From NCBI GenBank assembly GCA_965247415.1, contig OZ252007.1, positions 2,416,416 to 2,480,415 of the forward strand: DNA of 64,000 nucleotides, given 5' to 3'. This document shows, piece after piece, positions 7,877-50,856 of this stretch. The stretch comes from Methylophilaceae bacterium (GTDB lineage Bacteria; Pseudomonadota; Gammaproteobacteria; Burkholderiales; Methylophilaceae). The position numbers were made by a program, and so were the translations under genes. Numbering within the stretch: the first letter of the stretch is position 1; each line of letters opens with the position of its first letter. The notes below the pieces were generated by a model. The model was not told the DNA's origin and ran no database searches. It saw only the letters and a program-made list of their open reading frames with translations.

Positions 7877-7955
7877 TTAAAATGTGTAAGGAATTTTAAT
7901 TGCCAAAGACTAAACCTTAACTGGCTTTTTATTCTTTTCAATTTTGAGAGAAATT

Positions 7956-8984: not shown

Positions 8985-9025
8985 TCATCATTTTGATGAC
9001 CGCTTAAATTTTACGGCTATATTTT

Positions 9026-9646: not shown

Positions 9647-9717
9647 CTAATTTTTGTAAGTAATTGAGTTGATTAGCGACTTATGAAAACAAATAAATAC
9701 AACTAGGGGAAAATTAA

Positions 9718-15748: not shown

Positions 15749-16222
15749 CTATTTTGTATTTTGCTGAAAGCGACTCAATAACCATGCATCCATTGAATAC
15801 TTACCAACGCCAGAAACTGCAATCATTGCAAATAGGCTGCCCCAAAGGATGTGTTGCGATAAGGCTACGGGCGGAATATCGACCAAGCTGATGACGGCCA
15901 TGCCATTCACAATACATAAACCGATAGCAGAAAACCGACCCAGCAATCCAGCCGTCAGCAAGATTGGTAAAAGTAATTCGCCACCTGTTCCCATCCATGC
16001 CGCCAGCTCGGGCGGGAGTAAAGGCACGTGGTACTCTTCATTAAATAAAAACAAGGTACTGTCCCAATCCCTCACCTTGGTGAGGCCTGATAAGAAGAAA
16101 ATCTTGGCTAGGTAAAGTCTAGCTATCAATAAGCCTAACGATGTGAGCTTTTCAAGTTGCCCTAGCAACATGTGCTGCCAGTGATAAACGCGGATAAATG
16201 ATGGTGTCTGAATTGTTTTCAT
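15749..16222 (-). CDS. DoxX-family membrane protein of the MNIO/bufferin-type operon
   Basis: Its ATG at 16222 overlaps the upstream stop (ATGA). It is a DoxX-like 4-TM protein (LIARLYLAKIFFLSGLTK) and the last gene of the DUF2282-DUF692-DUF2063-DoxX set. Confidence 0.8.
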   Translation of the reverse strand: MKTIQTPSFIRVYHWQHMLLGQLEKLTSLGLLIARLYLAKIFFLSGLTKVRDWDSTLFLFNEEYHVPLLPPELAAWMGTGGELLLPILLTAGLLGRFSAIGLCIVNGMAVISLVDIPPVALSQHILWGSLFAMIAVSGVGKYSMDAWLLSRFQQNTK

Positions 16223-16989
16223 AATGAATCTCCTAATTGATTTGAGGTAAAGCCTATGGCTAGGCATTGTTGTAATGCACTCTGCAACCAAGGTAATGTT
16301 TTTTCGCCCATGTTGGATGCCTCATTAATTGCATGCGCTAAGCTTTTGCCTTGTAATAGGCTTGAAAAAAACAAATACGCTTCGTGAGTAATGATGGAAA
16401 GTGACGCACGCCAATGCTCACGACTAATAAGCAGATACTGCTGCGCACCCTCCGATAAAGGTTGATTGGCCTGATCTAACCATGTTTCGCGATTTTCCTT
16501 AGCGTGATGGGCCTGCCAAATTTCCAAGAGTGGAAAGCGAGAGGCCATGACGGCCACATAATGTGTCGGGTTTAAATGCAAAAATTGCCCGTCTATGGCG
16601 TTAAGTAAGGCGATAGAAGCAACTGTATGTTCTGGTGTTGCAGCGCGTTTCAAGCGATGACAAAACCAATCAAGTTGTGCTACATCTGCCAGAAAAGGCA
16701 TGTCATGCAGAGTCTCTTGTTGTGATAGCCATTTCGCCAGATGCTCACCCCATTCACCCCAATCGCCAGTGTGCAATGGATGCGCATCATAATAAAGTGC
16801 AGCCACAGCTTGCAGCCCTTCTGCACCAAGCAGTTGATCAAGTGTAGGAAAGCTAATGTCGAGCGTACGTGAAGCGCTTGCAAGCAGGTTGCTGCGATAA
16901 ACCAGAATGCCTTTTGGCGGTATTGCGGCAGTTTTGTGTGCAATAGAACGCGCAAATTGTTCTGGTGAACCGTCAATCACGCTGATCAT
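16219..16989 (-). CDS. DUF2063-domain RiPP maturation partner (BufC/HvfC-like)
   Basis: 256 aa from ATG 16989, which forms an ATGA overlap with the MNIO gene stop. It has the DUF2063 hallmark ..LVYRSNLLASASRTLDISFPTLDQLLG. Confidence 0.8.
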   Translation of the reverse strand: MISVIDGSPEQFARSIAHKTAAIPPKGILVYRSNLLASASRTLDISFPTLDQLLGAEGLQAVAALYYDAHPLHTGDWGEWGEHLAKWLSQQETLHDMPFLADVAQLDWFCHRLKRAATPEHTVASIALLNAIDGQFLHLNPTHYVAVMASRFPLLEIWQAHHAKENRETWLDQANQPLSEGAQQYLLISREHWRASLSIITHEAYLFFSSLLQGKSLAHAINEASNMGEKTLPWLQSALQQCLAIGFTSNQLGDSL

Positions 16990-17846
16990 GATGTAAGCAC
17001 CCCTTGCAAGATGCTCCGTGCGATTTGTGCTTCGGCGACCAAGGCTTCCCAGCTTGGCAAATCGTTGTCCCATTCAATCAGCGTGGGTATTGCGCCAAAG
17101 CGTTTTAAAGCCAAACGATAAGCCTGCCAAACGGTTTCAGATACAGGGTGACTGTGATCATCAATCATCAGCTCGCCTTCGGCTGGTGGCGTGCATCCAG
17201 CAAGATGTATTTCACCAACAACGGTTATGGGGATAGACGCTATCCACTGGCTTACATATTCAATTGGGTTTGGGATAGCGCTATTTGTCGCATTCACGAC
17301 CAAATTATTTAAATCCAACAACAGACCACAACCAGTGCGTTGCGTTAGCTCGGTGAGGAATTCTGTTTCAGACATACTACTGCTGCTAAACGCCACATAA
17401 GCAGAAATGTTCTCCACTAACATCTGTCTCTTTAAGCTGTTTTGTAGCGTATCAACGTTTTCACATAACGCGCCTAAACACGCCTCATTAAACGCTAACG
17501 GTAATAAATCGCCAGCATGCTGTAGTTCATCATGGTGCAGAGTCCATCCATGCGCAGCGTGGTCAGATACCAAAATAGGATTCGTGCGTTCCACTAAACG
17601 TTTAAGCTTTTGCACATGCTGTGGCGCTACACCCGCTTTTGAGCCAAGACCTAATGCCGTGGCGTGCAGACTGATGGGAAAACGAGCGGCCGCTTCATCA
17701 AGCACAGCGATGCTCGCACCCCCGTCTGCAAAAAAATTTTCTGCATGCACTTCCACAAAATCCACCAAAACATCAGAGTTAAGCGCAGCTTCATAATGCG
17801 GGCTTCTAAGACCAACGCCTATCATGTGTTGCGTAACGGTTTTCAT
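16986..17846 (-). CDS. DUF692 / MNIO (multinuclear non-heme iron oxidative) enzyme (BufB/HvfB/MbnB-like)
   Basis: 286 aa with a TIM-barrel DUF692 signature at the N-terminus (IGVGLRSPHYEAAL...VDFVEVHAENF), and later SLHATALGLGS, HLAG and LIEWD. Confidence 0.88.
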   Translation of the reverse strand: MKTVTQHMIGVGLRSPHYEAALNSDVLVDFVEVHAENFFADGGASIAVLDEAAARFPISLHATALGLGSKAGVAPQHVQKLKRLVERTNPILVSDHAAHGWTLHHDELQHAGDLLPLAFNEACLGALCENVDTLQNSLKRQMLVENISAYVAFSSSSMSETEFLTELTQRTGCGLLLDLNNLVVNATNSAIPNPIEYVSQWIASIPITVVGEIHLAGCTPPAEGELMIDDHSHPVSETVWQAYRLALKRFGAIPTLIEWDNDLPSWEALVAEAQIARSILQGVLTS

Positions 17847-17871
17847 GGGCTGATACTGACTTCGTTAACGT

Positions 17872-18156
17872 TTAAGATTTTGTAGACTTAAACTTGGCCT
17901 TGGCTTCAGCATCCACCAGACCATTCAGTGATTTGCATGTGCCTTTTGCAACCAGCTTCCACTCGCCAATATCATTGTTTGTTTTGGACTGACCAGCACA
18001 CGAATGCGTACCTGCTAAATTGGCACAGTCGTTTTGCCCAGCCTTGACGATGCCGTAGCATTTTTCTTTGTTTGGGTCTGCGGCAAAACTGGTTGAAGAA
18101 ATGCCATTGGCAACTAAGCCAGCTAAGGCTGTTGCGAGGAATAATTGATGATTCAT
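17872..18156 (-). CDS. DUF2282 family secreted Cys-containing precursor (bufferin BufA1-type)
   Basis: Sec signal peptide (MNHQLFLATALAGLVANGISSTSFA) followed by the DUF2282 core EKCYGIVKAGQNDCANLAGTHSCAGQSKTNNDIGEWKLVAKGTCKSLNG, which has 4 Cys. An SD-like AAAGGA precedes ATG 18156. Confidence 0.85.
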   Translation of the reverse strand: MNHQLFLATALAGLVANGISSTSFAADPNKEKCYGIVKAGQNDCANLAGTHSCAGQSKTNNDIGEWKLVAKGTCKSLNGLVDAEAKAKFKSTKS

Positions 18157-18181
18157 GATAGTTCCTTTCATTGATTAAAAT

Positions 18182-18514
18182 TTAAATGCCAAAGCCTTCA
18201 TGATGAATGAGCCAACGATTAATCTCTGACTCCGCATGATGACCAACCATTGTGTCTACTAGCTCGCCGTCACGCAGTAGTACCAAAGTCGGCACGCTAC
18301 GCACATTGAAAAACGCGGCAATTTCTTCCTGTTGGTCTATATTCGTTCTGGCAGCAAGCAAATTTGATTTGTAGCGGGATGCGACGCGCTCGAATACGAT
18401 GCCTAAACGTTGGCAAGAGGCGCAACAAGATGACCAAAAATCAATTAACACCCAGCGATGTTGCGTAGCTAGCTCGGCCAAGTGTTCAGTTTTATTAATA
18501 TGAATAATGCTCAT
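18182..18514 (-). CDS. thioredoxin-fold protein with atypical CASC active site
   Basis: 110 aa with the motif LIDFWSSCCASCQRL in the thioredoxin position and no signal peptide. It ends 10 nt upstream of the DUF2282 ORF. Confidence 0.7.
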   Translation of the reverse strand: MSIIHINKTEHLAELATQHRWVLIDFWSSCCASCQRLGIVFERVASRYKSNLLAARTNIDQQEEIAAFFNVRSVPTLVLLRDGELVDTMVGHHAESEINRWLIHHEGFGI

Positions 18515-18570
18515 TTCAGGCTCCTTAAGCTCTGAGCCATCTCAAATGACAAGATGGCTCAGATGATGTC

Positions 18571-19074
18571 TTACAAGTCTTTAGGGGCTTTGTTACGAAG
18601 TTGTGGCCACTCTGACTCAGCTTTTGTCAAATTACCTGGCACGTCTTCTAACCATTTAGTCTGTACTTCTTTGTTAAGGTTGAGGTAGAGCTTGTTGTCC
18701 ACCACACGCCATGCTTGTGGGTCGCCATCAAGCTTTTTACCTAATGCCACGCCCATTGCACAAAAGCCGCCGTACTGAGGTACAAATTTTTCTGAATTTG
18801 CCTTAAATGCATCTCGGTTTTTTGCATTGGCAAAATGGTAGGTTGCGCCTTTGTAAGATGCGGTGAATTTATCGGAACCTTCTACTGGCGCGGCATTTGT
18901 AAAGTAAGCCACAGGGTCGTAGCCTTTAATCGCTACGCCTTGTTTATCCACATTGAGTGCGCTAGTAGAGGTTTCGTCATAGGCAAAGGCCAATTCAGGC
19001 ACAATGGTGACAAGGGTGCTGGTACTTAAAATCGCCGCTAATAGGAGGTGACGGCTAAAAAATTGGGTTTTCAT
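18571..19074 (-). CDS. secreted YHS-domain protein
   Basis: Signal peptide followed by VAIKGYDPVAYFT...KF.ASYKGATYHFANAKNRDAF..NPEKF.PQYGGFC, typical of YHS-domain proteins. Confidence 0.75.
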   Translation of the reverse strand: MKTQFFSRHLLLAAILSTSTLVTIVPELAFAYDETSTSALNVDKQGVAIKGYDPVAYFTNAAPVEGSDKFTASYKGATYHFANAKNRDAFKANSEKFVPQYGGFCAMGVALGKKLDGDPQAWRVVDNKLYLNLNKEVQTKWLEDVPGNLTKAESEWPQLRNKAPKDL

Positions 19075-19124
19075 AATGTGATCCTTTAAAAATAATGAGT
19101 GTTAATGAATAAAATACGCGTGTC

Positions 19125-19670
19125 TTAAGCCGCCACTTTTAATGCCACTTTTGGAAAATCAATATCTAATTGACTGGCTTTACCAATCATGTTGGTCAGT
19201 ACGTTCATGCCTACATGGGTAATAATCTCCACAATCTCAGCATCGCTGTAGCCAGCTGCACGTGCCTCAAGTAACTCCGCAGTCGTCACATCGCCAGTAT
19301 GTTCTGCAATTGAATTAGCCAGTTTGACGGCCACTGCAGCTTTTGCGTCTTGGCTAGTGCCGGCGCGATTTGCAGAGATTTCATCGCCAGTTAAACCAGC
19401 TTTGCGACCAATAGCGGTATGCGCGGATAAACAGTACTCGCAAGAGTTTTGTTGTGCCAAAGCTAGGGCGATACGTTCGCGGGTTTGTGGGTCTAGGCTG
19501 CCTTCATTCGCTATACCATGCAAACCTAAGAATGCACGTAATGCAGCAGGCGAGTTGGCGAATACTTTTAAAAAGTTAGGCACCATCCCTAGTTGTGATT
19601 GAATAGCATCTAGCAATGCTTTTTGCTCTGAATTTGCAGTTTCATTTGTAACAGTAGTAATACGGCTCAT
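19125..19670 (-). CDS. carboxymuconolactone decarboxylase / AhpD-like family protein
   Basis: 181 aa with the AhpD-type CxxC motif in context (QQNSCEYCLSAH). Confidence 0.8.
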   Translation of the reverse strand: MSRITTVTNETANSEQKALLDAIQSQLGMVPNFLKVFANSPAALRAFLGLHGIANEGSLDPQTRERIALALAQQNSCEYCLSAHTAIGRKAGLTGDEISANRAGTSQDAKAAVAVKLANSIAEHTGDVTTAELLEARAAGYSDAEIVEIITHVGMNVLTNMIGKASQLDIDFPKVALKVAA

Positions 19671-23906: not shown

Positions 23907-24683
23907 CTATGCTACCTTACTAATTAACCCAGCCTCCAGCCAGCCAGCAATATATTGTGCCGCAGTTGTCATGGCTTGCTCATCATCCATCTCGACTTCT
24001 AGGCTGGCACAGATTTCTCCGAAGGTTGCCCCCATCATTGCCATATTTAAGGTGATGAATTCCATTTCTACAATTTGCCTAAATTGTGAGTTGAAGTTTT
24101 TACGCCAGATGAGCCATGATTGATAAGTGGCTTCTTGCGCAGGTTTTGGTGGTGTTTCTTCAATTTCTAGCGCTTGCCATATTGGTATTGTGTTCCAGTG
24201 CGTGCGTACTATTTTGATGGTAGGTTGAAATTTAAATCTCAGCATAGCCCAGTTTTCTAGTGGAATTTCAGCGAGGTCTTGCAGGCTTAATTCGGGGACA
24301 TCTTCTTCATCAAATGCTAAAGACAATGCCCATTCAAAATCTGCCATCTCGGCGGCGATTGGGTATTGCGATAGTGTAGCAAGTAAATGCTCATGCATTT
24401 GGCTGCCATACCAACGTAAATTGCGGTAGGTTGAAGGATGTGCCGTTATATACTCTCGGGCAGTTTTATTGAATAGCACGTCACCAAGTAAGGCTTTTAG
24501 CTGTGGGTAGGCAGTTGCAAGCGCTTCGACAATGCGTAATCGATAGGCATTATGGTAAATACTAAGGCGTTGTTTTGCGCCTACTTTTTTGTCGTCGATT
24601 ATGGCTTTAACAAAACCTGTACCTTGCGCATCGTCTAACAAATATGCTTGAAAATCAGCTTGAAGTTTAGCTAGATTGTTCAT
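23907..24683 (-). CDS. DUF2063-domain RiPP maturation partner (second locus)
   Basis: The N-terminus LAKLQADFQAYLLDD and RLSIYHNAYRLRIVEALATAYPQLKALLG are DUF2063 hallmarks. Its start forms a 4-nt ATGA overlap with the MNIO gene stop. Confidence 0.8.
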   Translation of the reverse strand: MNNLAKLQADFQAYLLDDAQGTGFVKAIIDDKKVGAKQRLSIYHNAYRLRIVEALATAYPQLKALLGDVLFNKTAREYITAHPSTYRNLRWYGSQMHEHLLATLSQYPIAAEMADFEWALSLAFDEEDVPELSLQDLAEIPLENWAMLRFKFQPTIKIVRTHWNTIPIWQALEIEETPPKPAQEATYQSWLIWRKNFNSQFRQIVEMEFITLNMAMMGATFGEICASLEVEMDDEQAMTTAAQYIAGWLEAGLISKVA

Positions 24684-25516
24684 GCTGCCACCTTTAGCAC
24701 GCTAGATGATAGGTCACGCGCAATTTGCAACTCTTGCACTAAAACATCTAATTCTGGAATATTATCATCACGCTCTATCATGGTGGAAACCTCGCCCAGT
24801 TTTGAGATTGCGTAACTATATAAATCCCACACATGATCTATCACTGGTGCATCGTGCGTATCAATAATGTAGTCGCCATTATTTTGGTGCCCAGCTAAAT
24901 GAATTTGCTGAACGCGATTTTTTGGAACGCCGTTAATAAACGTTTTAGCATCAAATTGGTGGTTGTAACTGCTTACGTAAATATTGTTTACATCTAGCAG
25001 CAAAAGGCAATCTGCTTGCTCGCTAATAAGCGAGATGAACTCCCATTCGCTCATACTCGAATCTACATAGCTTGCGTAGCTAGAGACGTTTTCCAGCAAA
25101 ATTTGGCGACCTAGGTAATCTTGCACAATCTTTACACGCTCGGCTACATGCTTGGCTGTTTCTTCTGTATATGGTAGTGGTAATAAATCATGTAAGTTTT
25201 GGCCGTGCACGCCTGTCCAGCAAAGGTGGTCAGAAATCCATTGAGGTTGAATTCTATCAGCCAGTTTTTTTAAATCTTTTAAATAAGTTGGATCAATTGG
25301 CGCTGTTGAACCAATTGAGAGCGAAACGCCGTGCATCACAACGGGATAATCGGCACGAATTCTGTCTAAAAAATTGAGAGGCAAGCCACCAGGAATCATA
25401 TAGTTTTCTGATAGCGCTTCGAACCAATCAATATTGGGCTTGGAATCTAAAATTTCGTTGTAATGCTCTGATCGTAAACCAAGTCCAAATCCTAATGTTG
25501 GTGGATTGTTACGCAT
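24680..25516 (-). CDS. DUF692 / MNIO enzyme (second locus)
   Basis: 278 aa with LGFGLGLRSEHYNEIL...IDWFEALSENY, VMHGVSLSIGS, IHLAGH and MIERDD. It is paralogous to 16986-17846. Confidence 0.88.
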   Translation of the reverse strand: MRNNPPTLGFGLGLRSEHYNEILDSKPNIDWFEALSENYMIPGGLPLNFLDRIRADYPVVMHGVSLSIGSTAPIDPTYLKDLKKLADRIQPQWISDHLCWTGVHGQNLHDLLPLPYTEETAKHVAERVKIVQDYLGRQILLENVSSYASYVDSSMSEWEFISLISEQADCLLLLDVNNIYVSSYNHQFDAKTFINGVPKNRVQQIHLAGHQNNGDYIIDTHDAPVIDHVWDLYSYAISKLGEVSTMIERDDNIPELDVLVQELQIARDLSSSVLKVAA

Positions 25517-25611
25517 GTTTATCTCAAATAGTAGGGTATTTTACAAACTCAAAATTTGAGCATGGGTTAGTAGCAATTCCCATGCTCAGCTTTAGCACTA
25601 AACCGTCTAAA

Positions 25612-25962
25612 CTAAATCAAGTGACCGCCTTTTGCATCACAATCAGCACCAGTTAATGCTAAGTGCCCATGACCTTTACATTCGTTTTGACCTTTGCAGG
25701 CATTTGCAGCACTTTTGCAAGAACCTTGACCTTTACAAGCATTTGTAGCTGTTTTACAAGAGTTGTGACCTTTACAAGCATTGCCAGCAGTTTTGCAATC
25801 ACTAGTACCCTTACATGAGTTTACTCCTACACATGCACCTACGGTGCTGTTGGCTGCTGTATTGGTGCCTGCACCAGTTGCTGCACAGCCAGCTAAGATA
25901 AGTGCTGCCGCACCAATTGCTAGCAATGCGCCCCGGCGGCCATTATTTGTATTTATAGACAT
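25612..25962 (-). CDS. Cys/Lys-repeat lipoprotein-type precursor peptide (multi-Cys bufferin/HvfA-like class)
   Basis: 116 aa. The leader has an RR motif (NNGRRGALLAIG) and a lipobox (LILAGC). The body contains four tandem 13-14-residue units (VNSCKGTSDCKTAG / NACKGHNSCKTAT / NACKGQGSCKSAA / NACKGQNECKGHGH), giving 10 Cys after the lipobox Cys. It lies directly upstream of MNIO and DUF2063. Confidence 0.75.
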   Translation of the reverse strand: MSINTNNGRRGALLAIGAAALILAGCAATGAGTNTAANSTVGACVGVNSCKGTSDCKTAGNACKGHNSCKTATNACKGQGSCKSAANACKGQNECKGHGHLALTGADCDAKGGHLI

Positions 25963-26226
25963 GATATTTCCTTTCGAGTTTATTAAAAAAATCCACCATT
26001 TCTAATTAAAACTAACATTTAGAAAAGACAGACGATCTAAATACGTGAATTAACACAAAATAGATTCATCATGTGCCACGCATTACTTTGTCGAAATAAT
26101 CTGCAGACCCTTACAATTCGTTTACTTTTATATTGCTTTCTATTCACCGTAATTTAAATTTACAAAATATGTAAGTAAACATTTTCATTTGCGACTAATG
26201 TTGACATTTAATAATCGGAGTTCATT

Positions 26227-26610
26227 ATGAAAGCTTTATTTAAATCAATATTATTAACATCTAATCTTATAGTCGTTGCGACTGCGTTTGCAGAAACTAC
26301 CGCTTTTACTCAATCAGGTTTTAATCAATTACAACAAGAAGGTAAATCTATACTGGTTGAAATTCATGCGCCATGGTGTCCTACTTGTCGCGCGCAAGCA
26401 CCAGTTATTGATATGTTACTCAAGAAAAAAGAGTATCAATCCATTAACGCTTTACGTGTGGATTTTGATAGCCAAAAAGAGGCTTTAAAGGCATTTAATG
26501 TAAGTAGGCAAAGTACATTAATCGTTTATAAAGGGTCGAAAGAGATGGGTCGCAGTACTGGGGATACTTCACCAGCAAATATCGAGAAGTTAATTCAGAA
26601 AGCAATCTAA
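26227..26610 (+). CDS. secreted thioredoxin-family protein (WCPTC)
   Basis: Signal peptide MKALFKSILLTSNLIVVATAFA and active site HAPWCPTCRAQ. Confidence 0.85.
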   Translation: MKALFKSILLTSNLIVVATAFAETTAFTQSGFNQLQQEGKSILVEIHAPWCPTCRAQAPVIDMLLKKKEYQSINALRVDFDSQKEALKAFNVSRQSTLIVYKGSKEMGRSTGDTSPANIEKLIQKAI

Positions 26611-26626
26611 CAAAAATTAAGGATTT

Positions 26627-27361
26627 GTGATCATGATTGCTCATTTTGGTATTTATGGACTTAGTTTCTTAGCTGGAATACTGTCTATACTATCTCCATG
26701 TGTTTTACCTCTTGTCCCCATTATCGTGGGGGCTGCACTTAATACGCATAAATATGGTCCATATACGCTAGCATTTGGATTGGCAATTTCATTCACTGCA
26801 GTTGGGGTCTTTATTGCCACAATTGGCGCATCAATTGGAATAGATCAAGAAGCGTTTAGAACGATTGCAGCCTTACTTTTAATCATCTTCGGTGTGGTAT
26901 TGCTTTCAGGGACTTTGCAGGAAAGATTTGCTAGTGTTACTGCTGGCATTAGTGGATCTGGAAATAACTTATTAAGTAAAGTATCTGCAAACTCATTATT
27001 TGGTCAATTTATTTTGGGATTGTTATTAGGTATTGTATGGAGTCCATGCGTAGGGCCCGTTTTAGGAGCAACCATCACTCTAGCAAGCCAAGGAACTAAC
27101 TTGCTTCACGTGACAATAGTTATGGCAATATTTGGACTTGGTGCAGGCTTACCATTAATCATATTGGGATCGCTTTCAAAACAAATCATGATGAACCTTA
27201 GAGTCAAGTTATTTGCCGCAGGTAAAATTGGCAAACGTATCCTTGGTGTTATTTTATTGCTTGTTGGATTACTAATAATATCTGGATTCGATAAACAATT
27301 TGAAGCTTTAATTGTAAAAGCATCACCAGATTGGTTAATTTCAATTACTACACGATATTGA
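26627..27361 (+). CDS. CcdA/DsbD-family transmembrane thiol-disulfide electron transporter
   Basis: Polytopic protein with the two conserved Cys-Pro motifs (LSPCVLPLVP and WSPCVGPVLG). The start is GTG 26627 or ATG 26633. Confidence 0.85.
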   Translation: MIMIAHFGIYGLSFLAGILSILSPCVLPLVPIIVGAALNTHKYGPYTLAFGLAISFTAVGVFIATIGASIGIDQEAFRTIAALLLIIFGVVLLSGTLQERFASVTAGISGSGNNLLSKVSANSLFGQFILGLLLGIVWSPCVGPVLGATITLASQGTNLLHVTIVMAIFGLGAGLPLIILGSLSKQIMMNLRVKLFAAGKIGKRILGVILLLVGLLIISGFDKQFEALIVKASPDWLISITTRY

Positions 27362-27566
27362 ATGATTTACTTTGATTTAGATGTGGGCATTCGTACCTTA
27401 GTTATCTTAGAAATCCATATTAGTATTTTTTGACATGCCATTATTGGGTAGCCTAACAAGTCAGTTTGAGTTGCATTGAATCATTAAGCAATATAAATAG
27501 TTGATTTGTCTAGTAAGTTTTGAGTATCTACAACGACTAATGCTTATTTAAATAGGATGCGAAGTT

Positions 27567-28358
27567 ATGTTTCTCAAACGAATTAGTAAACCAACAGTTA
27601 TTTGTACTCTCCTATTACCTTTTATTTTATCAACTTTATCAACAACACTTATTGCTGCAGAATGCTCTTCTAAAAGTGGTGCCACCAGAGTTCCATTGCT
27701 TGAGCTATATACTTCGGAGGGCTGTAGTAGTTGTCCTCCCGCTGACAAGTGGCTGAATAGCATGAAGTTAAGTGCTGATAAAGTAGTGCCTTTGGCTTTT
27801 CATGTAGATTATTGGGACTATATTGGATGGAAAGATAGGTTTTCAAAGCCAGAATTCAGTGCACGTCAACATTCGAATGTGGCGTTTAATAAGTCAAGCT
27901 TTGTTTATACTCCGCAATTTAGTTTTAATGGGCAGGATTTTAGAGGTTGGAATGACTCGCGTTTAAATAATTTTGTAGAACAAAGTTTAAAGCAGCCATC
28001 TCGTGCCAACTTGACGCTTGATGAGATTAATCAAGCAAACGGCGAAATTGTAATAAAAGCAACTGCGCAGGTAATTCAATTAGAGGACTCAAAACATTCT
28101 GAAATTTATATTGCAATTTACGAAAATAAATTAGTGAGCAACGTCAAAGCTGGTGAAAATAATGGTCGTGAACTCAAGCATGATTATGTCGTTCGTGATT
28201 TATTGGGAGCTTACCAACTCAACTTAAAAAGCGAATTCTCAAAAAGTATTACTTTAAAGCCTGAATGGAAGGGTCGAAATGCAGGTGCTGTAATATTTGT
28301 ACAAAACTCTCAAAGTGGTGAAATTCTTCAAAGCCTACAGCTACCTTTTTGTATTTAA
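27567..28358 (+). CDS. secreted DUF1223 protein (CxxC)
   Basis: Signal peptide followed by the family hallmark LLELYTSEGCSSCPPADKWL ... AFHVDYWDYIGWKD. Confidence 0.85.
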   Translation: MFLKRISKPTVICTLLLPFILSTLSTTLIAAECSSKSGATRVPLLELYTSEGCSSCPPADKWLNSMKLSADKVVPLAFHVDYWDYIGWKDRFSKPEFSARQHSNVAFNKSSFVYTPQFSFNGQDFRGWNDSRLNNFVEQSLKQPSRANLTLDEINQANGEIVIKATAQVIQLEDSKHSEIYIAIYENKLVSNVKAGENNGRELKHDYVVRDLLGAYQLNLKSEFSKSITLKPEWKGRNAGAVIFVQNSQSGEILQSLQLPFCI

Positions 28359-28531: not shown

Positions 28532-28933
28532 ATGAGCATTGGGATTAAGAGAACACAACGAGATTACACGCTGTCTTTTAAATTGTCGGTTGTTGAACAA
28601 ATTGAGCATGGAGAGCTGACTTATAAAGAAGCCCAGAAACGCTATGGTATACAGGGTAGATCAACGGTATTAATCTGGTTACGCAAGCACGGTCATCTGG
28701 ATTGGTATAATCTTTCATCATCAGATTTACTGAGTACTGAGATGACTAAAAAACCTTCGTTACCACAAACGCCAGAGCAGCGGATTAAAGCTTTAGAGGC
28801 TGAATTAAAAGACGCTAATCTCAAAGCGCAATTGTTCGAAGCCATGCTGGATGTCATCAAGACTGAGTACGGAGTAAAACTCCCAAAAAAGCCTTTAAGT
28901 GCGTCCTTGCCAAAAAAGAAACTCTTCGAATAA
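28532..28933 (+). CDS. IS3-family transposase OrfA (HTH)
   Basis: 133 aa with an N-terminal HTH (YTLSFKLSVVEQIEHGELTYKEAQKRYGIQGRSTVLIWLRKHG) and a leucine-zipper-like C-terminus. A AAA AAG slippery heptamers lie in phase at 28885-28891 and 28912-28918. Confidence 0.9.
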   Translation: MSIGIKRTQRDYTLSFKLSVVEQIEHGELTYKEAQKRYGIQGRSTVLIWLRKHGHLDWYNLSSSDLLSTEMTKKPSLPQTPEQRIKALEAELKDANLKAQLFEAMLDVIKTEYGVKLPKKPLSASLPKKKLFE

Positions 28934-28956
28934 GTACGGCCAAAGCCTGTCGATTT

Positions 28957-29766
28957 GTGGGGATGAGTCGTCAAGCTTATTATCAGCGCTGTGCCACTGA
29001 AGCCAATGTAGCTAACGAGCACCTTCAAGTGCTAACGTTGGTTCGAGAACAACGCATGTTGCAACCTAGGGTTGGTACGCGCAAGCTGCACTACCTGCTT
29101 AAAAACAGCATGACTGAACGTCACATCAAAATGGGACGTGATGGCTTGTTTAATTTACTTCGCAAAGCACGGCTGCTTGTGTTGCCTAGTAGGTCTTATC
29201 ACAAGACAACCAACAGTCATCATCGCTTTTATAAACACCCCAACTTACTGAAGCCAGGGTTGAATCAAGTCATGCCTAGCAGGCCAGAGGAAGTATGGGT
29301 TGCTGATATTACTTATTTGCCAACGCAAACACAAAACACCTATTTGAGTTTAGTGACGGATGCTTACTCCAGAAAGATCGTGGGTTATCACGTAGATGAA
29401 CATATGCAGACCAGTGCAGTGGGTAGGGCGTTGAAGATGGCAGTTAGTGCGAGACGCTCAACCTCCCCCTTGATTCACCACTCGGATAGAGGAATTCAAT
29501 ATTGTTCATCCGAATATCAATCCATTCATCTGCGTAATCAAATAACGTGTTCGATGACCGATGGTTACGACTGTTATCAGAATGCGCTGGCTGAACGTGT
29601 TAATGGTATATTAAAGAATGAGTTTCTACTGACCAAACCCAAGGATTTGGAAGAAGCAAGAAAGATGGTCAAACAATCCATCAAGATTTACAATGAACTC
29701 AGGCCGCATCTAAGCCTAAAATACAAAACGCCTAATGCAGTGCATCAGGCGTTTGAATCAACCTAA
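28957..29766 (+). CDS. IS3-family transposase OrfB (DDE/rve integrase core), expressed as an OrfAB fusion by -1 frameshift
   Basis: DDE core contexts are present (WVADITYL, HSDRGIQYCS, NALAERVNGILKNE). The -1 frame is open from at least 28885 and reads KKETLRISTAKACRFVGMSRQAYY after the second heptamer. Confidence 0.9.
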   Translation: MGMSRQAYYQRCATEANVANEHLQVLTLVREQRMLQPRVGTRKLHYLLKNSMTERHIKMGRDGLFNLLRKARLLVLPSRSYHKTTNSHHRFYKHPNLLKPGLNQVMPSRPEEVWVADITYLPTQTQNTYLSLVTDAYSRKIVGYHVDEHMQTSAVGRALKMAVSARRSTSPLIHHSDRGIQYCSSEYQSIHLRNQITCSMTDGYDCYQNALAERVNGILKNEFLLTKPKDLEEARKMVKQSIKIYNELRPHLSLKYKTPNAVHQAFEST

Positions 29767-35512: not shown

Positions 35513-36730
35513 ATGCAATATCAATTACGTGTTTTGCGCGATGGTAAAGCGCCACAGCAGTTTGAGGTTGATGCAACTTCTTCGGGTGAGGCCATAAAAA
35601 AAGCAGAGCAGCAAGGCCTCACGGTACTTCAAATTAAGCCAGCGCAAACAGGTTTTTTTTCTTTTATTCCCAATTTGCTCACTCAAAAAAGTGGTGTTAG
35701 CAATCAAACTTTTCCATTAATCTTATTTTGCCAAGAATTCCGTGTGTTATTTGATGCGGGATTGGCGGTGATGGAAGTGTTAAATACCTTAATTGACAAA
35801 GAGTCTAATTCTCCAACTAAACAAGTGTTAGAAAATTTACTGCAAGCTGTGCAAGAAGGTAAAACGCTCTCACAAGCCATGGCACTGAATCCGCAGGCTT
35901 TTCCAAGTTTGTTGATTGCAACGGTGAGTGCAGCAGAATCTACAGGAGACTTGTCTGAAGCGCTGATGCGCTATAGCCATTATTTAGAAAGCGTGGATTT
36001 ATTAAAAAAGAAAATTGTCAGCGCAACGCTTTACCCAGCAATTGTGAGTACAGTTGGGGTAGTAGTGTTGATTTTTTTAATTGTTTTTGTGATTCCAAAA
36101 TTCAGTAAAATTTATGAAACCCAAGTTAAAACCGTTTCATTGACCACGCAGTTTTTACTAAAGCTGGGTAATTTCTCACAACACTATGGTTTTTTGATGT
36201 TGGTAATATTTGTGGTGTTAGTTGTAGGGATATCTATCAGTATTGCAAACCCTGAAAACAGAAAACGCTTGACTGAAAAAATGTGGAAAATTCCATACCT
36301 TGGTGAGCATTTACGCTTGTATTACCTAACACGGTTCTATCGCACGTTTGCCATGTTATTAAAAAGTGGTATTCCTGTGATGAATGGTTTAACAATGGTA
36401 GAAAACTTATTAGGCGTGCAGTTAAAAAGTAATCTATTGCATGCAAAAAAATTGATTTCAGAAGGAAAGCCTTTTTCAAATGCACTCCAAACGGCAGGCC
36501 TTACTACGCCAGTAGCGATTCGACTATTTAACGTTGGCGAGCAAACAGGTACGCTGGATTTAATGATGGAACGCGCGGCGACTTTTCATGAAGAGCAAAT
36601 GGTGCGTTGGATAGACCGTTTTACCAAAGTGTTTGAGCCTATGCTGATGGCTTTGATTGGCATTATGATTGGGGGGATTGTGCTCATGCTGTATATGCCA
36701 ATTTTTGAATTAGCTAGTGGTATTGAGTAA
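35513..36730 (+). CDS. GspF/PilC-family inner-membrane platform protein (cluster 1)
   Basis: 405 aa with the duplicated T2SSF domain, 3 TM segments and the conserved C-terminus MLMALIGIMIGGIVLMLYMPIFELASGI. Confidence 0.9.
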   Translation: MQYQLRVLRDGKAPQQFEVDATSSGEAIKKAEQQGLTVLQIKPAQTGFFSFIPNLLTQKSGVSNQTFPLILFCQEFRVLFDAGLAVMEVLNTLIDKESNSPTKQVLENLLQAVQEGKTLSQAMALNPQAFPSLLIATVSAAESTGDLSEALMRYSHYLESVDLLKKKIVSATLYPAIVSTVGVVVLIFLIVFVIPKFSKIYETQVKTVSLTTQFLLKLGNFSQHYGFLMLVIFVVLVVGISISIANPENRKRLTEKMWKIPYLGEHLRLYYLTRFYRTFAMLLKSGIPVMNGLTMVENLLGVQLKSNLLHAKKLISEGKPFSNALQTAGLTTPVAIRLFNVGEQTGTLDLMMERAATFHEEQMVRWIDRFTKVFEPMLMALIGIMIGGIVLMLYMPIFELASGIE

Positions 36731-36738
36731 TTAAGCAA

Positions 36739-38391
36739 ATGACCACTGCACATTTTCAACAGCTTTTTCTACAAGCTCGGACCCTATCAGAAAAAAATGG
36801 TCAACGCGCTATTGAGCAATTGGAAACGCTCTCTCAACTTTCACCCCCGATATTTACTGAGCAATTGGCTACTTTGTTTTCTTACCCTGTTTTATCCTTG
36901 GATGAGATGCAAATTTTGACACCCGATTTTCAGCGAATTAATTTCTCAGAAAGTTTGCAATATGAATGTTTGTTGCTAAAACGAGATGAAACTTACTTAT
37001 TTGTATTTGCTGATGTGTATAAGCAAAGTGTCATTGCTTGGGCGGCAGAGCGCATTCAAACGGCATTTGTCACACATTTAGCGCATCGAGCGGATATTGC
37101 TGCATTCTTGGCTAAGCATGAAGATGAAACACGTGCCATGCAAAGTGCGATGCACCATGTGGGCGTGACTAAGCAAGAGGGTGAAACGAAAGAAGAACTT
37201 TCGCTCAATGTGATTGAAGGGGATATTAGCCCCGTCATTAAACTTGTCCGTTCCACGCTTTATGATGCACTTAAAGCAGAAGCAAGTGACATTCATTTAG
37301 TGACAGCACCTGACGGCTTGGTAATTAAATATCGTTTAGATGGTGTATTAACACAAATTGGTGCAATCAATGAATTGTCATTAGCGGAGCAAGTGGTTTC
37401 CCGTATTAAGGTGATTTCTGAGCTTGATATTACCGAGCAGCGTGTGCCACAAGATGGACGCTTTAGAGCCGTTTATCGTGGTCGTGATGTCGATTTTCGT
37501 GTGTCCGTGATGCCAAGTATTCATGGCGAAGATGTGGTGATTCGGGTTTTGGATAAGCAAACACTGGCTGACCAATCGGTTGGTTTGCGTTTAGATGTGC
37601 TGGGCTTTGATGCTGAAACGATGGCGGTGATGCGTGAGCAGTTTGCCATGCCTTATGGAATGGTGTTAGTCACTGGGCCAACAGGCAGTGGCAAAACCAC
37701 AACACTCTATGCGGCTATTAGTGAAATTAATCGTGGTGACGACAAAATTATCACCATTGAAGACCCTGTAGAGTATGAATTAAAAGGGGTTTTGCAGATT
37801 CCCGTGAATGAGAAAAAGGGTCTGACTTTTGCCCGGGGGTTGCGCTCAATTTTACGTCACGACCCTGACCGCATTATGGTTGGGGAAATTCGAGACAGTG
37901 AAACAGCGCAAATTGCGGTGCAATCTGCGTTAACTGGGCATTTGGTATTTACAACTGTACATGCAAATAATGCTTTTGATGTCATTGGGCGCTTTATAAA
38001 TATGGGTGTTGATCCTTATAGTTTTGTTTCAGCCTTAAATATAGTTGTTGCTCAACGATTGTTGCGTGTGAATTGCCCGCAATGTGCAGAAAAGGTTACT
38101 GCAAATATTCCCTATAAAAATATTGTGATTCCAGCCAGTGCGCAATTAAAACGTGGTAAAGGATGCGGTACTTGTCGTGGCACTGGCTACAAAGGACGGC
38201 GTGCAGTGGCGGAAATTTTAATATTAGATGATGAGTTGCGTGAACTTATCGCCAATCGTGGCTCCATTCGACAAATTAAAGAATTGGCAGCCAAAAAGGG
38301 CACACAATTCTTACATCAATCTGCACTGAACATGGCTTTTGCTGGTGAAACAACGATTGAGGAGGTGCTACGTGTTGCTCCCTTGGTCTAA
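36739..38391 (+). CDS. GspE/PilB-family secretion ATPase (cluster 1)
   Basis: Walker A GPTGSGKTT, Asp box, Walker B (IMVGEIRD), His box (LVFTTVHAN) and a tetracysteine motif (CPQC...GCGTCRGTGYKGR). Confidence 0.95.
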   Translation: MTTAHFQQLFLQARTLSEKNGQRAIEQLETLSQLSPPIFTEQLATLFSYPVLSLDEMQILTPDFQRINFSESLQYECLLLKRDETYLFVFADVYKQSVIAWAAERIQTAFVTHLAHRADIAAFLAKHEDETRAMQSAMHHVGVTKQEGETKEELSLNVIEGDISPVIKLVRSTLYDALKAEASDIHLVTAPDGLVIKYRLDGVLTQIGAINELSLAEQVVSRIKVISELDITEQRVPQDGRFRAVYRGRDVDFRVSVMPSIHGEDVVIRVLDKQTLADQSVGLRLDVLGFDAETMAVMREQFAMPYGMVLVTGPTGSGKTTTLYAAISEINRGDDKIITIEDPVEYELKGVLQIPVNEKKGLTFARGLRSILRHDPDRIMVGEIRDSETAQIAVQSALTGHLVFTTVHANNAFDVIGRFINMGVDPYSFVSALNIVVAQRLLRVNCPQCAEKVTANIPYKNIVIPASAQLKRGKGCGTCRGTGYKGRRAVAEILILDDELRELIANRGSIRQIKELAAKKGTQFLHQSALNMAFAGETTIEEVLRVAPLV

Positions 38392-39148
38392 ACCCTTAAT
38401 CTTAACCATCGCTGCACACAGTATTGCGCTTAAAGATTCAAATAGTAAAGTCCACTTGCTATCTAAGCAAACCACAGATTTTGCGAATATTCCAAATGTA
38501 TTAGAGAAAGTTAAAGCGCTTTTTAAAAGGCAATCTGTTGAGATCATACTTTCAAATCATTTTGTAAGATTTTTAGCTTTACCTTGGCAAGCGCACATTG
38601 TGCAACTACAAGATTGGCAAGCCATTGCGCAACACGCGTTTAAAAAAGAATTTGGTGCGATGGCTAACGACTGGAAAGTGGCCGTGCATTTATATGGATT
38701 TGGTCAGCCTATTTTAGCCACAGCGATGGATAAAAGTGCCATTCATCATCTTAATGAAGTTGCTATGCTGATGGATTTTAAAATTCAATCTATCATCCCC
38801 TTATTAAATAAATGTTGGTCGCAACATTTAACAGAAAAAGATTGGCTGCTTATTGTTGAACCGCAAAGGCTATTATTAGCGCAAATGCAAGCATGTATTT
38901 GCAATCAAATGGTGGTTGATATGCCACCATCAGGGCAAGAGCAACAACATGCAACACAATTAGTACAGCGCAGCTTGATGCAAACGCCCGAGACTTTGCG
39001 CCCAAGTCGCGTGCTGACTTACGTAACAAGTGAAATACAGGAAAATTGGCAAAAAAATGGGGATTCCATCATTAAGCTGGTAAATCCAGTGGTGAATAAT
39101 CAACCGCATGCAGTTTGGATGGCAAATTTCTTGGATGACAAATTTTAA
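38372..39148 (+). CDS. PilM/GspL-like assembly protein (cluster 1), family assignment tentative
   Basis: The GTG start overlaps the end of gspE and is preceded by GAGGAGG. It is positional and sequence paralog of 48125-48982 and occupies the PilM/GspL slot before three single-TM proteins. Confidence 0.4.
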   Translation: MLLPWSKPLILTIAAHSIALKDSNSKVHLLSKQTTDFANIPNVLEKVKALFKRQSVEIILSNHFVRFLALPWQAHIVQLQDWQAIAQHAFKKEFGAMANDWKVAVHLYGFGQPILATAMDKSAIHHLNEVAMLMDFKIQSIIPLLNKCWSQHLTEKDWLLIVEPQRLLLAQMQACICNQMVVDMPPSGQEQQHATQLVQRSLMQTPETLRPSRVLTYVTSEIQENWQKNGDSIIKLVNPVVNNQPHAVWMANFLDDKF

Positions 39149-39165
39149 GTCATCAAGCTAATGGA

Positions 39166-39693
39166 TTGAAAGTGAATACAATGCAAAAACCTAATTTTAA
39201 TTTTGTGACTCATTCAGTTTTGAAAAAATCATCGATTGATTTTATCTTAGTTGCATTGGCAATATTATTAGCGGCGATTTTATTTATAGTTTATCAATTT
39301 AAATTAAGTGCATTCAATGATCTTCAAGCAAAAAAAGATGCACAGCCTGTCATCAGGACAAAGCCAATTAATCCACAATTCGCAGAACATTTACAACATT
39401 TTAAGATTGCTCAACATACCCTTAATGTGCCTTGGATGGAAACTTTTAACGCGCTAGAGTTGGTAAAGCAAGCGCATCCAAATGTGCAATTTTTGTCCGT
39501 AGAGCCTAATCTGAACCGTAATGAAATTAAAATTAAAGTGAAGGCAGAAGCATTTGATGAAGTGACCGCTTTACTAGAGTCGTTACGAAAATCACCACTG
39601 TTTAATGAAGCGGAATTAGTGAGTCAGCATATTGAAACCACCGATGAGGAAGTGGTTACTGTATTTGATATACATTTAGGGTGGAAAATATGA
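39166..39693 (+). CDS. PilN-like single-pass membrane protein (cluster 1)
   Basis: A short cytoplasmic N-terminus, one TM (IDFILVALAILLAAILFIVY), then a coiled coil and a small periplasmic domain. The start is uncertain (TTG 39166 or ATG 39181). Confidence 0.45.
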   Translation: MKVNTMQKPNFNFVTHSVLKKSSIDFILVALAILLAAILFIVYQFKLSAFNDLQAKKDAQPVIRTKPINPQFAEHLQHFKIAQHTLNVPWMETFNALELVKQAHPNVQFLSVEPNLNRNEIKIKVKAEAFDEVTALLESLRKSPLFNEAELVSQHIETTDEEVVTVFDIHLGWKI

Positions 39694-40241: not shown

Positions 40242-40246
40242 GTTTA

Positions 40247-42698: not shown

Positions 42699-42700
42699 CC

Positions 42701-50138: not shown

Positions 50139-50159
50139 TGATGAATCTACTAATAATAG

Positions 50160-50831: not shown

Positions 50832-50856
50832 TAAAAAATCATTCAAAGTAGAATTT

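Follow-up and report, generated by a model that had tools for sequence, protein, structure and literature searches.

Does a short cysteine-rich reading frame that joins a lipoprotein-like leader to a run of Cys-Lys units encode a new kind of metal-binding lipopeptide, or does it belong to a family that has already been described? This question is raised by a locus in a 64-kb stretch of DNA, referred to here as the window. The reading frame lies on the minus strand (25612..25962, stop codon included), starts with ATG and encodes 116 aa. The observation made in a preliminary description of the locus holds, and that the gene is real is supported both by a family profile match (E = 1.2e-30) and by dN/dS values of 0.05-0.15 against nine orthologues, which place it under strong purifying selection. 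A Shine-Dalgarno sequence, AAGGA, can be read 6 nt before the start codon (25969..25973, minus strand), and its GGA/AGGA block is kept in the alignment of upstream regions.

The family, left unnamed in the preliminary description, was identified by profile search. The product scores 105.5 bits against BufA2 (NF050166), a "bufferin-type metallophore" model of NCBIfam with a curated cutoff of 60, and 2847 homologues were found. A Pfam search with the precursor returned no matches; there is no Pfam model for BufA2, a family represented only in NCBIfam. The gene, bufA2, encodes the precursor of a type-2 bufferin (Buf2, the 'Cys-Lys' captophorin group). Since it is a real bufferin-precursor gene, with a predicted lipid anchor and four cassettes instead of two, it adds some interest to a described family but is in essence an ordinary member of it. 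Taken as a whole, the locus quite probably provides a Methylotenera-like betaproteobacterium of the Methylophilaceae with a lipid-anchored Buf2 precursor that is MNIO-modified and sequesters copper. A six-frame scan of the window for a second CK-rich precursor found none, with no other ORF carrying at least two CK[GTS] motifs. Tandem bufA genes are present in some related loci.

The product has Cys at residues 26, 44, 50, 56, 63, 69, 76, 82, 89, 95 and 108. The eight from 50 to 95 are each followed by K and then by G, T or S, with a spacing that alternates between 6 and 7, as had been described earlier. They fall in four tandem cassettes (residues 48-99; 25666..25821, minus strand), each of the form N-x-C-K-G-x-x-x-C-K-x-x-x. 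Four tandem units had been recognised before at a length of 13-14 residues; the number stands, and each unit is exactly 13 residues long. At the DNA level, Tandem Repeats Finder reports a 39-bp period with 2.9 copies, 79% matches and a score of 140, and cassettes 2 and 3 are identical at 31 of 39 nt.

Comparison with relatives suggests how this arrangement came about. In an alignment of 73 sequences (A1), the invariant Cys are C44, C50, C56, C89, C95 and C108, which are the six Cys of the Buf2 pattern, while the four further Cys of the bufA2 product (63, 69, 76 and 82) fall in inserted cassettes. Relatives are separated from it by clean 13- or 26-residue gaps and have two, three or four cassettes; set against relatives of 89 aa, the bufA2 product has a clean 26-residue insert. 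The core owes its ten Cys to the insertion of two extra 13-residue cassettes, which is a modestly new point.

In Buf2 of Caulobacter vibrioides, the central Cys show shifts of -4 Da and become 5-thiooxazoles, and CysI and CysVI are unmodified (PMC11626156). By analogy, the cassette Cys are predicted sites of 5-thiooxazole formation. The equivalents of CysI and CysVI are Cys44 (25831..25833, minus strand) and Cys108 (25639..25641, minus strand), both invariant columns in A1, and Cys44 is predicted to stay unmodified and to form a disulfide with Cys108. An AlphaFold2 model built from the 73-sequence alignment is too poor (mean pLDDT 49.5, pTM 0.30) to serve a fold search or a count of metal sites; only the terminal strand (residues 42-45, with Cys44) and terminal helix (residues 105-110, with Cys108) of this low-confidence model resemble the published Buf fold. 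The computed monoisotopic mass of the mature peptide without modification is 8667.86 Da. Its end had been called His-rich, which is inaccurate: the 91-residue mature part has only four His, and they are partly conserved.

The precursor begins with a signal peptide (residues 1-25; 25888..25962, minus strand) that fits lipoprotein patterns. In a pattern-based test, it shows a positively charged n-region with R9 and R10, a hydrophobic core of 13-15 residues (h-region GALLAIGAAALIL) and a lipobox, L23-A24-G25-C26 (25885..25896, minus strand), with Cys26 as the predicted lipidated N-terminus of the mature protein. The lipoprotein criterion was [LVI][ASTVI][GAS]C after the hydrophobic core, with the Cys between residues 15 and 35, and the site fits both the G+LPP and the PROSITE-core patterns. 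With its Arg residues at 9-10, the leader breaks the old PROSITE side rule, which asks for a K or R among residues 1-7. A lipobox is found in 112 of the 120 closest clusters and in 34 of 150 distant representatives, with no instance of Asp at +2; the earlier opinion that the lipobox is a good one is thus well founded. Residues 27-43 (25834..25884, minus strand) form an Ala/Thr/Gly/Asn-rich linker, or tether, which is the most variable and most gapped part of A1. The preliminary description had placed GACVG directly after the lipobox Cys and in doing so skipped the 15 linker residues in between (AATGAGTNTAANSTV).

The preliminary description was also aware of no MNIO product for which such anchoring had been characterised, a view that the literature does not support. 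About 16% of Buf2 bufferins had already been predicted to be lipoproteins (PMC12452194), and a triacylated, MNIO-modified DybA and the copper-peptide NedA were demonstrated experimentally in E. coli in 2026, modification coming first and triacylation after in both (PMC13056109).

bufA2 is the first gene of a bufA2-bufB2-bufC2 operon. The second gene, bufB2 (24680..25516, minus strand), encodes an MNIO (DUF692) bufferin maturase, with 386 bits against MNIO_BufB (NF050167, cutoff 310) and E = 1e-111 against Pfam MbnB_TglH_ChrH. The start of the third, bufC2 (23907..24683, minus strand), overlaps the bufB2 stop by 4 nt, and its product is the DUF2063 partner (Pfam DUF2063, 79.6 bits, cutoff 27.2). 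A PDB sequence search with BufC2 gave no match, and no signal peptides were found in BufB2 and BufC2. About 70 of 80 related loci, drawn from several phyla, share the order bufA-bufB-bufC, in agreement with the earlier proposal that the peptide is an MNIO substrate. BufB2 also reads IERDDNIP where PDB 3BWW has LERDFNFP (ERDD versus ERDF). Asp instead of Phe at the FonB-Phe250 position, beside the catalytic Asp, is a signature of MNIOs that act on Cys-Lys substrates (PMC13097082), and BufB2 carries this Asp. Iterative processing of up to 8-10 Cys by a single enzyme, as once proposed, fits the data on Buf2, oxazolin and fontiphorin (PMC11626156, PMC13097082). The expected number is eight; Cys26 would go to lipidation, and Cys44 and Cys108 align with the unmodified, disulfide-forming CysI and CysVI of Buf2.

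Together, these features suggest the following pathway. The operon would be transcribed from an ECF, SigF-like promoter under envelope, copper or oxidant stress. In the cytoplasm, BufB2 and its partner BufC2 would oxidise the eight cassette Cys (C50-C95), each C-K Cys becoming a 5-thiooxazole at -4 Da per site, as in C. vibrioides Buf2. The precursor would be exported by Sec, after which Lgt, LspA and Lnt would lipidate Cys26 and remove residues 1-25, and the Lol system would probably sort the lipoprotein to the outer membrane, the +2 residue being Ala. A structural disulfide would join Cys44 and Cys108. A linker of about 17 residues would tether the resulting 91-residue lipoprotein, which would sequester copper in the periplasm with up to four thiooxazole pairs, twice those of an ordinary 6-Cys Buf2. 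This extra metal capacity would follow from the insertion of the two additional 13-residue cassettes. In published work on C. vibrioides, bufferin 1 is selective for copper, and growth under copper stress was tested for both the buf1 and the buf2 cluster (PMC11626156).

The promoter deserves separate attention. A putative ECF (SigF-like) promoter of bufA2, TGTAAGG-N15-CGAC(AAA), lies at 26090..26115 on the minus strand. TGTAAGG-N15-CGAC has a single exact match in the window, where 0.02 would be expected by chance; its columns are invariant across an alignment of 14 upstream regions, and the spacer is exactly 15 nt in 65 of the 67 motif instances of related loci. The site is similar to that of Caulobacter sigmaF, GTAACC-N16-CGAA (PMC3511200), but differs in its -35 bases (GTAAGG in the window) and by 1 nt in spacing. 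A second, divergent copy, TGTAAGT-N15-CGAC, stands before trx-ccdA (26170..26195, plus strand) with a PWM score of 18.2, the third best in the window, and a weaker one, AGTAAGT-N15-CGAC (27512..27537, plus strand; PWM score 16.2), before a DUF1223 gene (27567..28358). About 30 related loci have an exact copy of the motif ahead of a DUF1223 gene that adjoins bufABC. Within the window, bufA2 also has the motif in common with msrP (msrPQ), and msrP is a classical member of the SigF regulon (PMC3511200, PMC4436054). A conserved SigF-like motif common to bufA2, msrPQ, trx-ccdA and DUF1223 would be another modestly new point. Of the window ORFs of at least 150 aa that were scanned with Pfam or NCBIfam, none matched an ECF sigma factor or NrsF, and a search upstream of the window's buf1 cluster gave no SigF-like motif. 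The conserved TGGCAC block of the 5' UTR was also considered as a sigma-54 element and discarded on visual inspection, its GG-GC spacing being wrong. In one related locus (L026), a similar motif site lies before a divergent trx.

Several alternatives to this pathway were weighed. One concerns export: the preliminary description saw a twin-arginine-like motif and a possible Tat route, by which the precursor would leave the cytoplasm folded or cofactor-loaded and then be lipidated as a Tat/SPII lipoprotein. R9-R10 followed by G-A-L does satisfy the minimal TatP regex RR.[FGAVML][LITMVF], and RR is kept in the five closest orthologues although neighbouring n-region residues vary. However, few relatives have this pattern (9 of the 120 closest clusters and 3 of the 150 distant representatives), and most carry K-G or R-N-G at that position in front of the same mature domain. 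The full Tat consensus, [ST]RRx[FL][LIV]K, matches none of the sequences (bufA2 reads G-R-R-G-A-L-L), and Tat-signal models gave no match to the product except one at 11.6 bits, against a cutoff of 48. Furthermore, the h-region is the most hydrophobic of the six signal peptides in the window (maximum 12-residue Kyte-Doolittle mean 2.73, versus 1.48 for MsrP, which has a textbook NRRTFIK Tat signal), and the Buf1 signal peptide functions as a Sec signal (PMC11626156). Tat export was rejected on the rarity of RR, the missing consensus and the hydrophobic h-region, and we consider it highly improbable. Still harder to credit is an unmodified, metallothionein-like Cys-rich lipoprotein that binds metal through plain thiolates, with the adjoining MNIO acting elsewhere. 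A sizeable share of Buf precursors does lie away from MNIO genes (PMC12452194), and the window holds a second MNIO cluster (buf1, 15749..18171). Yet the A-B-C linkage is tight and conserved, the Cys-Lys specificity residue of BufB2 suits the bufA2 substrate, and all MNIO-DUF2063 systems that have been tested act on the Cys-rich peptide encoded beside them (PMC11626156, PMC13097082).

The remaining alternative retains the biosynthesis and anchoring and changes the main role to a redox one. Here, the thiol-bearing thiooxazoles would scavenge oxidants or hypochlorite in the periplasm as a sacrificial sink and would be recycled by co-regulated Trx-CcdA and DUF1223, by analogy with MrpX and MsrP of the SigF regulon in Azospira. 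The presence of the same motif before msrPQ, a periplasmic thioredoxin with CcdA and the CxxC protein DUF1223 favours such a role, as does the position of the motif-bearing DUF1223 gene beside bufABC in the related loci. Azospira SigF responds to reactive chlorine species, not copper (PMC4436054), and some bufferin forms have been seen to contain an additional labile S-S bond that links modified residues (PMC11626156). Against this, the experimental phenotypes of bufferins concern copper, for which bufferin 1 is selective (PMC11626156), related captophorins bind copper too (PMC13097082), and co-regulation is read from the motif only. A mainly redox function is unlikely, and copper sequestration by a Sec-exported, MNIO-modified lipoprotein is the preferred reading.

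A tentative proposal, which may well not hold in full, would connect the cassettes with the promoter. In Buf2 lipoproteins of the Methylophilaceae and some other lineages, a copy-variable 13-residue, two-Cys cassette (2, 3 or 4 copies giving 6, 8 or 10 core Cys) could adjust how many thiooxazole metal sites a peptide tethered to the outer membrane carries. MsrPQ would share a SigF-type envelope-stress regulon with this peptide, and so would Trx-CcdA and the CxxC protein DUF1223, a dedicated reducing branch in the periplasm that would either recycle the peptide or keep its thiooxazole thiols reduced. In the bufferin literature examined, no mention was found of the cassette polymorphism or of the link to DUF1223 and Trx-CcdA.

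Among known systems, Bufferin 2 of C. vibrioides (BufA2, CCNA_03001, with BufB2/BufC2; BUF_6/12Cys; NF050166) resembles the locus in several ways. These include an HMM score above the cutoff, N-x-C-K-G and C-K-T motifs with six conserved Cys, a signal-peptide-bearing precursor in a precursor-MNIO-DUF2063 cluster without DoxX, and putative SigF-type control. However, its signal is of the SPI type, whereas the bufA2 product is a predicted SPII lipoprotein, and the Buf2 family has been described with 6 Cys (90%) or, by duplication of the whole domain, 12 Cys, compared with 10 core Cys here. The host also differs, being a betaproteobacterial methylotroph, and no sigma factor gene was found close by among the window ORFs scanned.

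NedA of Neisseria dentiae, a lipidated oxazolin-type RiPP-lipoprotein for which copper sequestration at the membrane has been proposed (PMC13056109), likewise has an SPII signal, a repeated Cys motif and an MNIO with a DUF2063 partner. It is modified in the cytoplasm and then triacylated, as predicted for the window peptide. Its repeats are E-G-K-C-G (Lys-Cys) and its enzyme is of the HvfB type, whereas the window MNIO falls below the HvfB cutoff (282.6 versus 360) and has Asp instead of Phe. Oxazolin (HvfA), fontiphorin (FonA) and bulbicupramide (MmrA), all EGKCG-repeat captophorins, also consist of short tandem Cys cassettes, whose number varies between strains. In HvfA, FonA and MmrA, one MNIO turns every cassette Cys into 5-thiooxazole and the products bind copper, both of which are predicted for bufA2. 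They differ in their 17-residue units with two EGKCG motifs, Lys-Cys orientation, predicted beta-helix and separate family HMM. Membership of the oxazolin / Buf_EGKCG (HvfA) group was rejected on the lack of an EGKCG motif, the HvfB score and an HvfC score for BufC2 of 40.7 (cutoff 142). Methanobactin (MbnA/MbnB) was rejected as well: the MbnB model gives 73 bits against a cutoff of 325, and the bufA2 precursor has a signal peptide, unlike the MbnA type of precursor, a short leader-core peptide without one that goes with an MbnB-type MNIO. Bufferin 1 (BufA1, DUF2282) is encoded in the same window (17872..18171), within the buf1 cluster. It is similar in its type of enzyme pair, its signal peptide, a disulfide between outer Cys and the conversion of central Cys to thiooxazoles, the latter two being predictions for bufA2, and differs in having four Cys, no C-K cassettes, a DoxX gene in its cluster and an SPI signal.

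With more than 20,000 known clusters, bufferins and captophorins rank among the most abundant classes of RiPPs and are tied to tolerance of copper and oxidative stress. The bufA2 locus does not overturn the current understanding of bufferins. It offers a clean natural case of predicted Buf2 lipoprotein anchoring together with core expansion by cassette insertion, both known so far mostly from surveys, in a group of abundant freshwater methylotrophs. With the product as substrate, one could conveniently ask how eight sites are handled by a single MNIO and whether metal capacity rises with the number of cassettes. The promoter motif provides a testable handle on the regulation of Buf2 clusters, which are without sigma factor genes of their own, and nominates DUF1223 and Trx-CcdA as functional partners.

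The intergenic region behind bufA2 holds one more feature, a hairpin with a 10-bp stem just after the stop codon (25557..25588, minus strand; TGAGCATGGG ... CCCATGCTCA, then AAUUUUGAG; z = -1.98). It was not flagged by a simple terminator scan with a loop limit of 3-8 nt, the loop here being 12 nt. Most of 31 related loci have a hairpin of 8-19 bp in the equivalent position; the sequences differ, and several are followed by U-tracts. Lying between the genes for precursor and enzyme, the hairpin may act as a partial terminator or stabilise the transcript, and its conservation after bufA is a further modestly new point.

The ORF at 25612..25962 (minus strand) encodes a BufA2 lipoprotein precursor of a known family, that of the type-2 bufferins (Buf2); its four-cassette core is modestly unusual, and its regulatory context is informative. 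The 116-aa product scores 105.5 bits on the NCBIfam model NF050166 'BufA2 family periplasmic bufferin-type metallophore' (cutoff 60, E = 1.2e-30), while a Pfam search of the precursor gave no match. The ORF is confirmed at the position originally given, with an ATG start and a ribosome-binding site (AAGGA) 6 nt 5' of it. Strong purifying selection acts on bufA2, for which comparisons with nine orthologues (dS up to 1.8) gave dN/dS values of 0.05-0.15; it is therefore very unlikely that the ORF is not translated. Overall, the observation made in the preliminary description is confirmed and its interpretation is partly supported.

The leader MSINTNNGRRGALLAIGAAALILAG is followed by the predicted lipidation Cys (Cys26), a 17-residue linker of Ala, Thr, Gly and Asn ending in ...VGAC44VGV, the four 13-residue cassettes NSCKGTSDCKTAG, NACKGHNSCKTAT, NACKGQGSCKSAA and NACKGQNECKGHG, and the C-terminal tail HLALTGADC108DAKGGHLI. 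As first described, each of the eight cassette Cys (residues 50-95) is followed by Lys and then G, T or S, with spacing that alternates between 6 and 7. The four tandem units also stand, each of 13 residues, but 15 linker residues had been omitted. At the DNA level, the repeats appear as a 39-bp period (2.9 copies, 79% matches, Tandem Repeats Finder score 140), with cassettes 2 and 3 identical at 31/39 nt. No second ORF of BufA2-like composition was found among the window ORFs.

bufA2 opens a three-gene operon. The second gene, bufB2 (24680..25516, minus), encodes an MNIO (DUF692) enzyme that reaches 386 bits on NF050167 'MNIO family bufferin maturase' (cutoff 310) and stays under the cutoffs of the HvfB, ApyH, MbnB and ChrH models. 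The third, bufC2 (23907..24683, minus), encodes a DUF2063 protein and overlaps bufB2 by 4 nt. This is the same architecture as in published buf2 clusters, which comprise precursor, MNIO and DUF2063 genes without DoxX (PMC11626156, PMC12452194). A search of 5.8 billion proteins returned 2847 BufA2 homologues, with Methylophilaceae and Methylotenera supplying the closest ones. Among 80 genomic loci fetched, the best of which is 97% identical and comes from an uncultured Methylophilaceae MAG, bufB and bufC lie directly 3' of the precursor in about 70, bearing out the proposed adjacency of such repeat peptides to MNIO genes. Alignment of BufB2 with PDB 3BWW places ERDD where the EGKCG-type enzyme has ERDF. 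Asp at this position is a reported signature of MNIOs with Cys-Lys, not Lys-Cys, substrates (PMC13097082, the source of the 'Cys-Lys' precursor group and of the class name 'captophorins'), and the enzyme and its Cys-Lys substrate therefore match.

A hairpin with a 10-bp stem (25557..25588, minus) immediately follows the bufA2 stop. Most of 31 loci compared carry one at the same spot, differing in sequence; several resemble canonical terminators, and many have a U-tract 3' of the hairpin. Its probable role is to set the precursor-to-enzyme ratio, as a leaky terminator or a stabiliser, which suggests that more precursor than enzyme is made.

Cassette number varies among relatives. In an alignment of 73 relatives, C44, C50, C56, C89, C95 and C108 are invariant and make up the six-Cys pattern of Buf2, and the length differences between the 89-, 102- and 115/116-aa forms are accounted for by clean gaps, each exactly 26 or 13 residues long. 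The window protein is therefore an ordinary Buf2 core whose Cys number has been raised to 10 by two inserted cassettes. Of the 120 closest clusters at 90% identity, 6 core Cys occur in 54, 10 in 52 and 8 in a few. A further search, exhaustive over 1.84 billion proteins (1547 matches, E ≤ 0.001), provided 150 more distant representatives at 50% identity: 117 have 6 Cys, 12 have 12 (mostly whole-domain duplications), only 3 are laid out with 10 Cys, and other internal expansions appear in a handful. For Buf2, a published survey gives '6 conserved Cys in 90% of cases and 12 in the remainder' (PMC12452194), so the cassette-insertion form is a minor variant not spelled out there. In EGKCG-type relatives, variable cassette number is well known (PMC12538549). 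One of the distant representatives, the 144-aa lipoprotein P0188, has GHGHGHGHSHG after the lipobox and a different internal expansion, with C-K-[GAT]-K-K-D-N-S repeats and 12 core Cys; this indicates that core expansion arose independently in several lineages. Some relatives carry two tandem bufA2 genes before one bufB (loci L023, L027, L033, L034 and L066; proteins P0021/P0114), and on one Methylophilaceae contig the two copies are of 94 aa (6 Cys) and 115 aa (10 Cys). At tandem loci, a single enzyme would serve precursors differing in cassette number.

The proposed lipobox is well supported. The N-terminus matches the G+LPP and PROSITE-core lipoprotein patterns at Cys26; 112 of the 120 closest clusters likewise have a lipobox, as do 34 (23%) of the 150 distant representatives. 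Across both sets, the residue after the lipobox Cys is Ala in 126 cases and Asp in none. In E. coli, the +2 rule governs Lol-dependent sorting of lipoproteins, and by this rule BufA2 is predicted to be sorted to the outer membrane. In an 85%-identical orthologue (L009:1074-1421), LILATSAA replaces LILAGCAA, so that the lipobox Cys is lost while the RR and the whole core are kept. Either this orthologue is soluble in nature or the assembly contains an error here.

Export through the Tat pathway, also raised initially on the basis of the leader's RR, is highly improbable. The RR is kept in the five nearest orthologues, which leaves Tat a residual chance, but RR-G-A-L meets only the minimal TatP regular expression. 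The consensus [ST]RRx[FL][LIV]K is matched by none of the 120 close clusters and 150 distant representatives, and an RR pattern occurs in just 9 and 3 of these, respectively, the rest having K-G or R-N-G before the same mature domain. Tat-signal models do not match BufA2, and its h-region is the most hydrophobic of six signal peptides in the window (12-residue Kyte-Doolittle mean 2.73). By comparison, the Tat signal of MsrP (7944..8984), NRRTFIKQAGFGLAAGLISQPLFA, is a textbook one, and its h-region averages 1.48.

By analogy with homologues, BufB2C2 would convert the eight cassette Cys to thiooxazoles, and the precursor would then be exported by Sec and processed at Cys26 by Lgt, LspA and Lnt. 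The mature peptide, presumably with a Cys44-Cys108 disulfide, would be tethered to the outer membrane through its ~17-residue linker and sequester copper. In a low-confidence model of BufA2, the only Buf-fold-like elements are a strand (42-45) containing Cys44 and a helix (105-110) containing Cys108. BufB2 and BufC2 have no signal peptides, which fits the published order for RiPP-lipoproteins of cytoplasmic modification before export and lipidation (PMC13056109). In C. vibrioides Buf2, each of four central Cys loses 4 Da (5-thiooxazoles) and CysI and CysVI form a disulfide; bufferin 1 binds copper 1:1 in a 2N/2S site, and growth under copper stress was tested for the buf1 and buf2 clusters (PMC11626156). 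Assuming two heterocycles per site, as in Buf1, BufA2 might speculatively hold up to four metal sites. The earlier statement that this anchoring mode is uncharacterised for MNIO products is out of date, since a lipoprotein prediction already applies to about 16% of Buf2 (PMC12452194) and MNIO-made RiPP-lipoproteins were demonstrated in 2026, when DybA and the EGKCG peptide NedA were obtained in triacylated, modified form and subsets of bufferins with SPII signals were listed (PMC13056109). No experimental study of a Buf2-type lipoprotein is apparent in this cited bufferin and RiPP-lipoprotein literature.

Across 14 aligned upstream regions, a putative promoter motif, TGTAAGG...CGAC(T/A)AA, is invariant, and the spacer is exactly 15 nt in 65 of 67 instances at related loci. 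The bufA2 copy (26090..26115, minus) is the sole exact match in the window, where 0.02 are expected by chance. Loci bearing the motif include Planctomycetales, Brocadiaceae, Undibacterium, Methylobacter and Burkholderiaceae. TGTAAGG-N15-CGAC resembles the Caulobacter sigmaF site GTAACC-N16-CGAA, whose regulon is yedY (msrP), buf1 and buf2 (PMC3511200). A position weight matrix built from related loci ranked the site before msrP (7881..7916, plus) best in the window, at 24.5, followed by that before bufA2 (23.2). Lower scores were obtained before a divergent trx-ccdA pair (26166..26201, plus; 18.2), DUF1223 (27508..27543, plus; 16.2) and an HvfX-family DoxX gene (9651..9686, plus; 11.9), and at 56018..56053 (minus; 15.5), a site with some 830 bp between it and the closest minus-strand ORF downstream. 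No sigma factor gene was found among the window ORFs scanned. Further conserved blocks lie 3' of the putative promoter in the bufA2 5' UTR (25980..26085, minus) at many loci, with the consensus GTGTGGCAnnnGATGAATCTAnTTTGT...CACGTAT, and may represent either an RNA element or a site for a regulator.

The motif-bearing genes at 26166..28358 (plus) encode a periplasmic thioredoxin (WCPTC), a CcdA/DsbD-TM protein and a secreted CxxC protein, DUF1223; at locus L026 of a bufA2 relative, trx-ccdA is divergent too and again comes with a similar motif site. In about 30 Methylophilaceae loci (within L002-L055), DUF1223 is convergent just past bufC with its own exact motif copy; no paper linking it to bufferins was found. 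In the window, DUF1223 is on the other side of the cluster, and DedA follows bufC, as in the nearest relative (L001). A two-ORF pair directly after DUF1223 (28532..29766, plus) was read as a putative IS3-family transposase, and together with the DedA-for-DUF1223 swap suggests local rearrangement.

Further away, msrP (469 bits), msrQ and the DoxX gene lie in a row (7881..10239, plus). The latter matches an HvfX-family 'Cu-binding RiPP maturation protein' (129.5 bits, cutoff 80), and this detached copy may serve the buf2 cluster, which itself lacks DoxX. About 8 kb from bufA2 is a Buf1-type cluster (15749..18171, minus), comprising bufA1 (17872..18171; DUF2282 precursor, 4 Cys), an MNIO gene (16986..17846; BufB model 303.8 bits, just below the 310 cutoff), DUF2063 (16219..17073) and DoxX (15749..16291), all on the minus strand. 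No SigF-like motif was found 5' of it; upstream on the same strand (18182..19670) are genes for a cytoplasmic-type thioredoxin, a YHS-domain protein and a CMD/AhpD-like protein. Two similarly organised pilus or type II secretion-like gene sets (35513..43222 and 45176..54395, plus), with PilN/PilO and pseudopilins bearing N-methylation motifs, and with an EpsA-type regulator, a PEP-CTERM protein and a DsbC homologue nearby, appear unrelated to bufA2.
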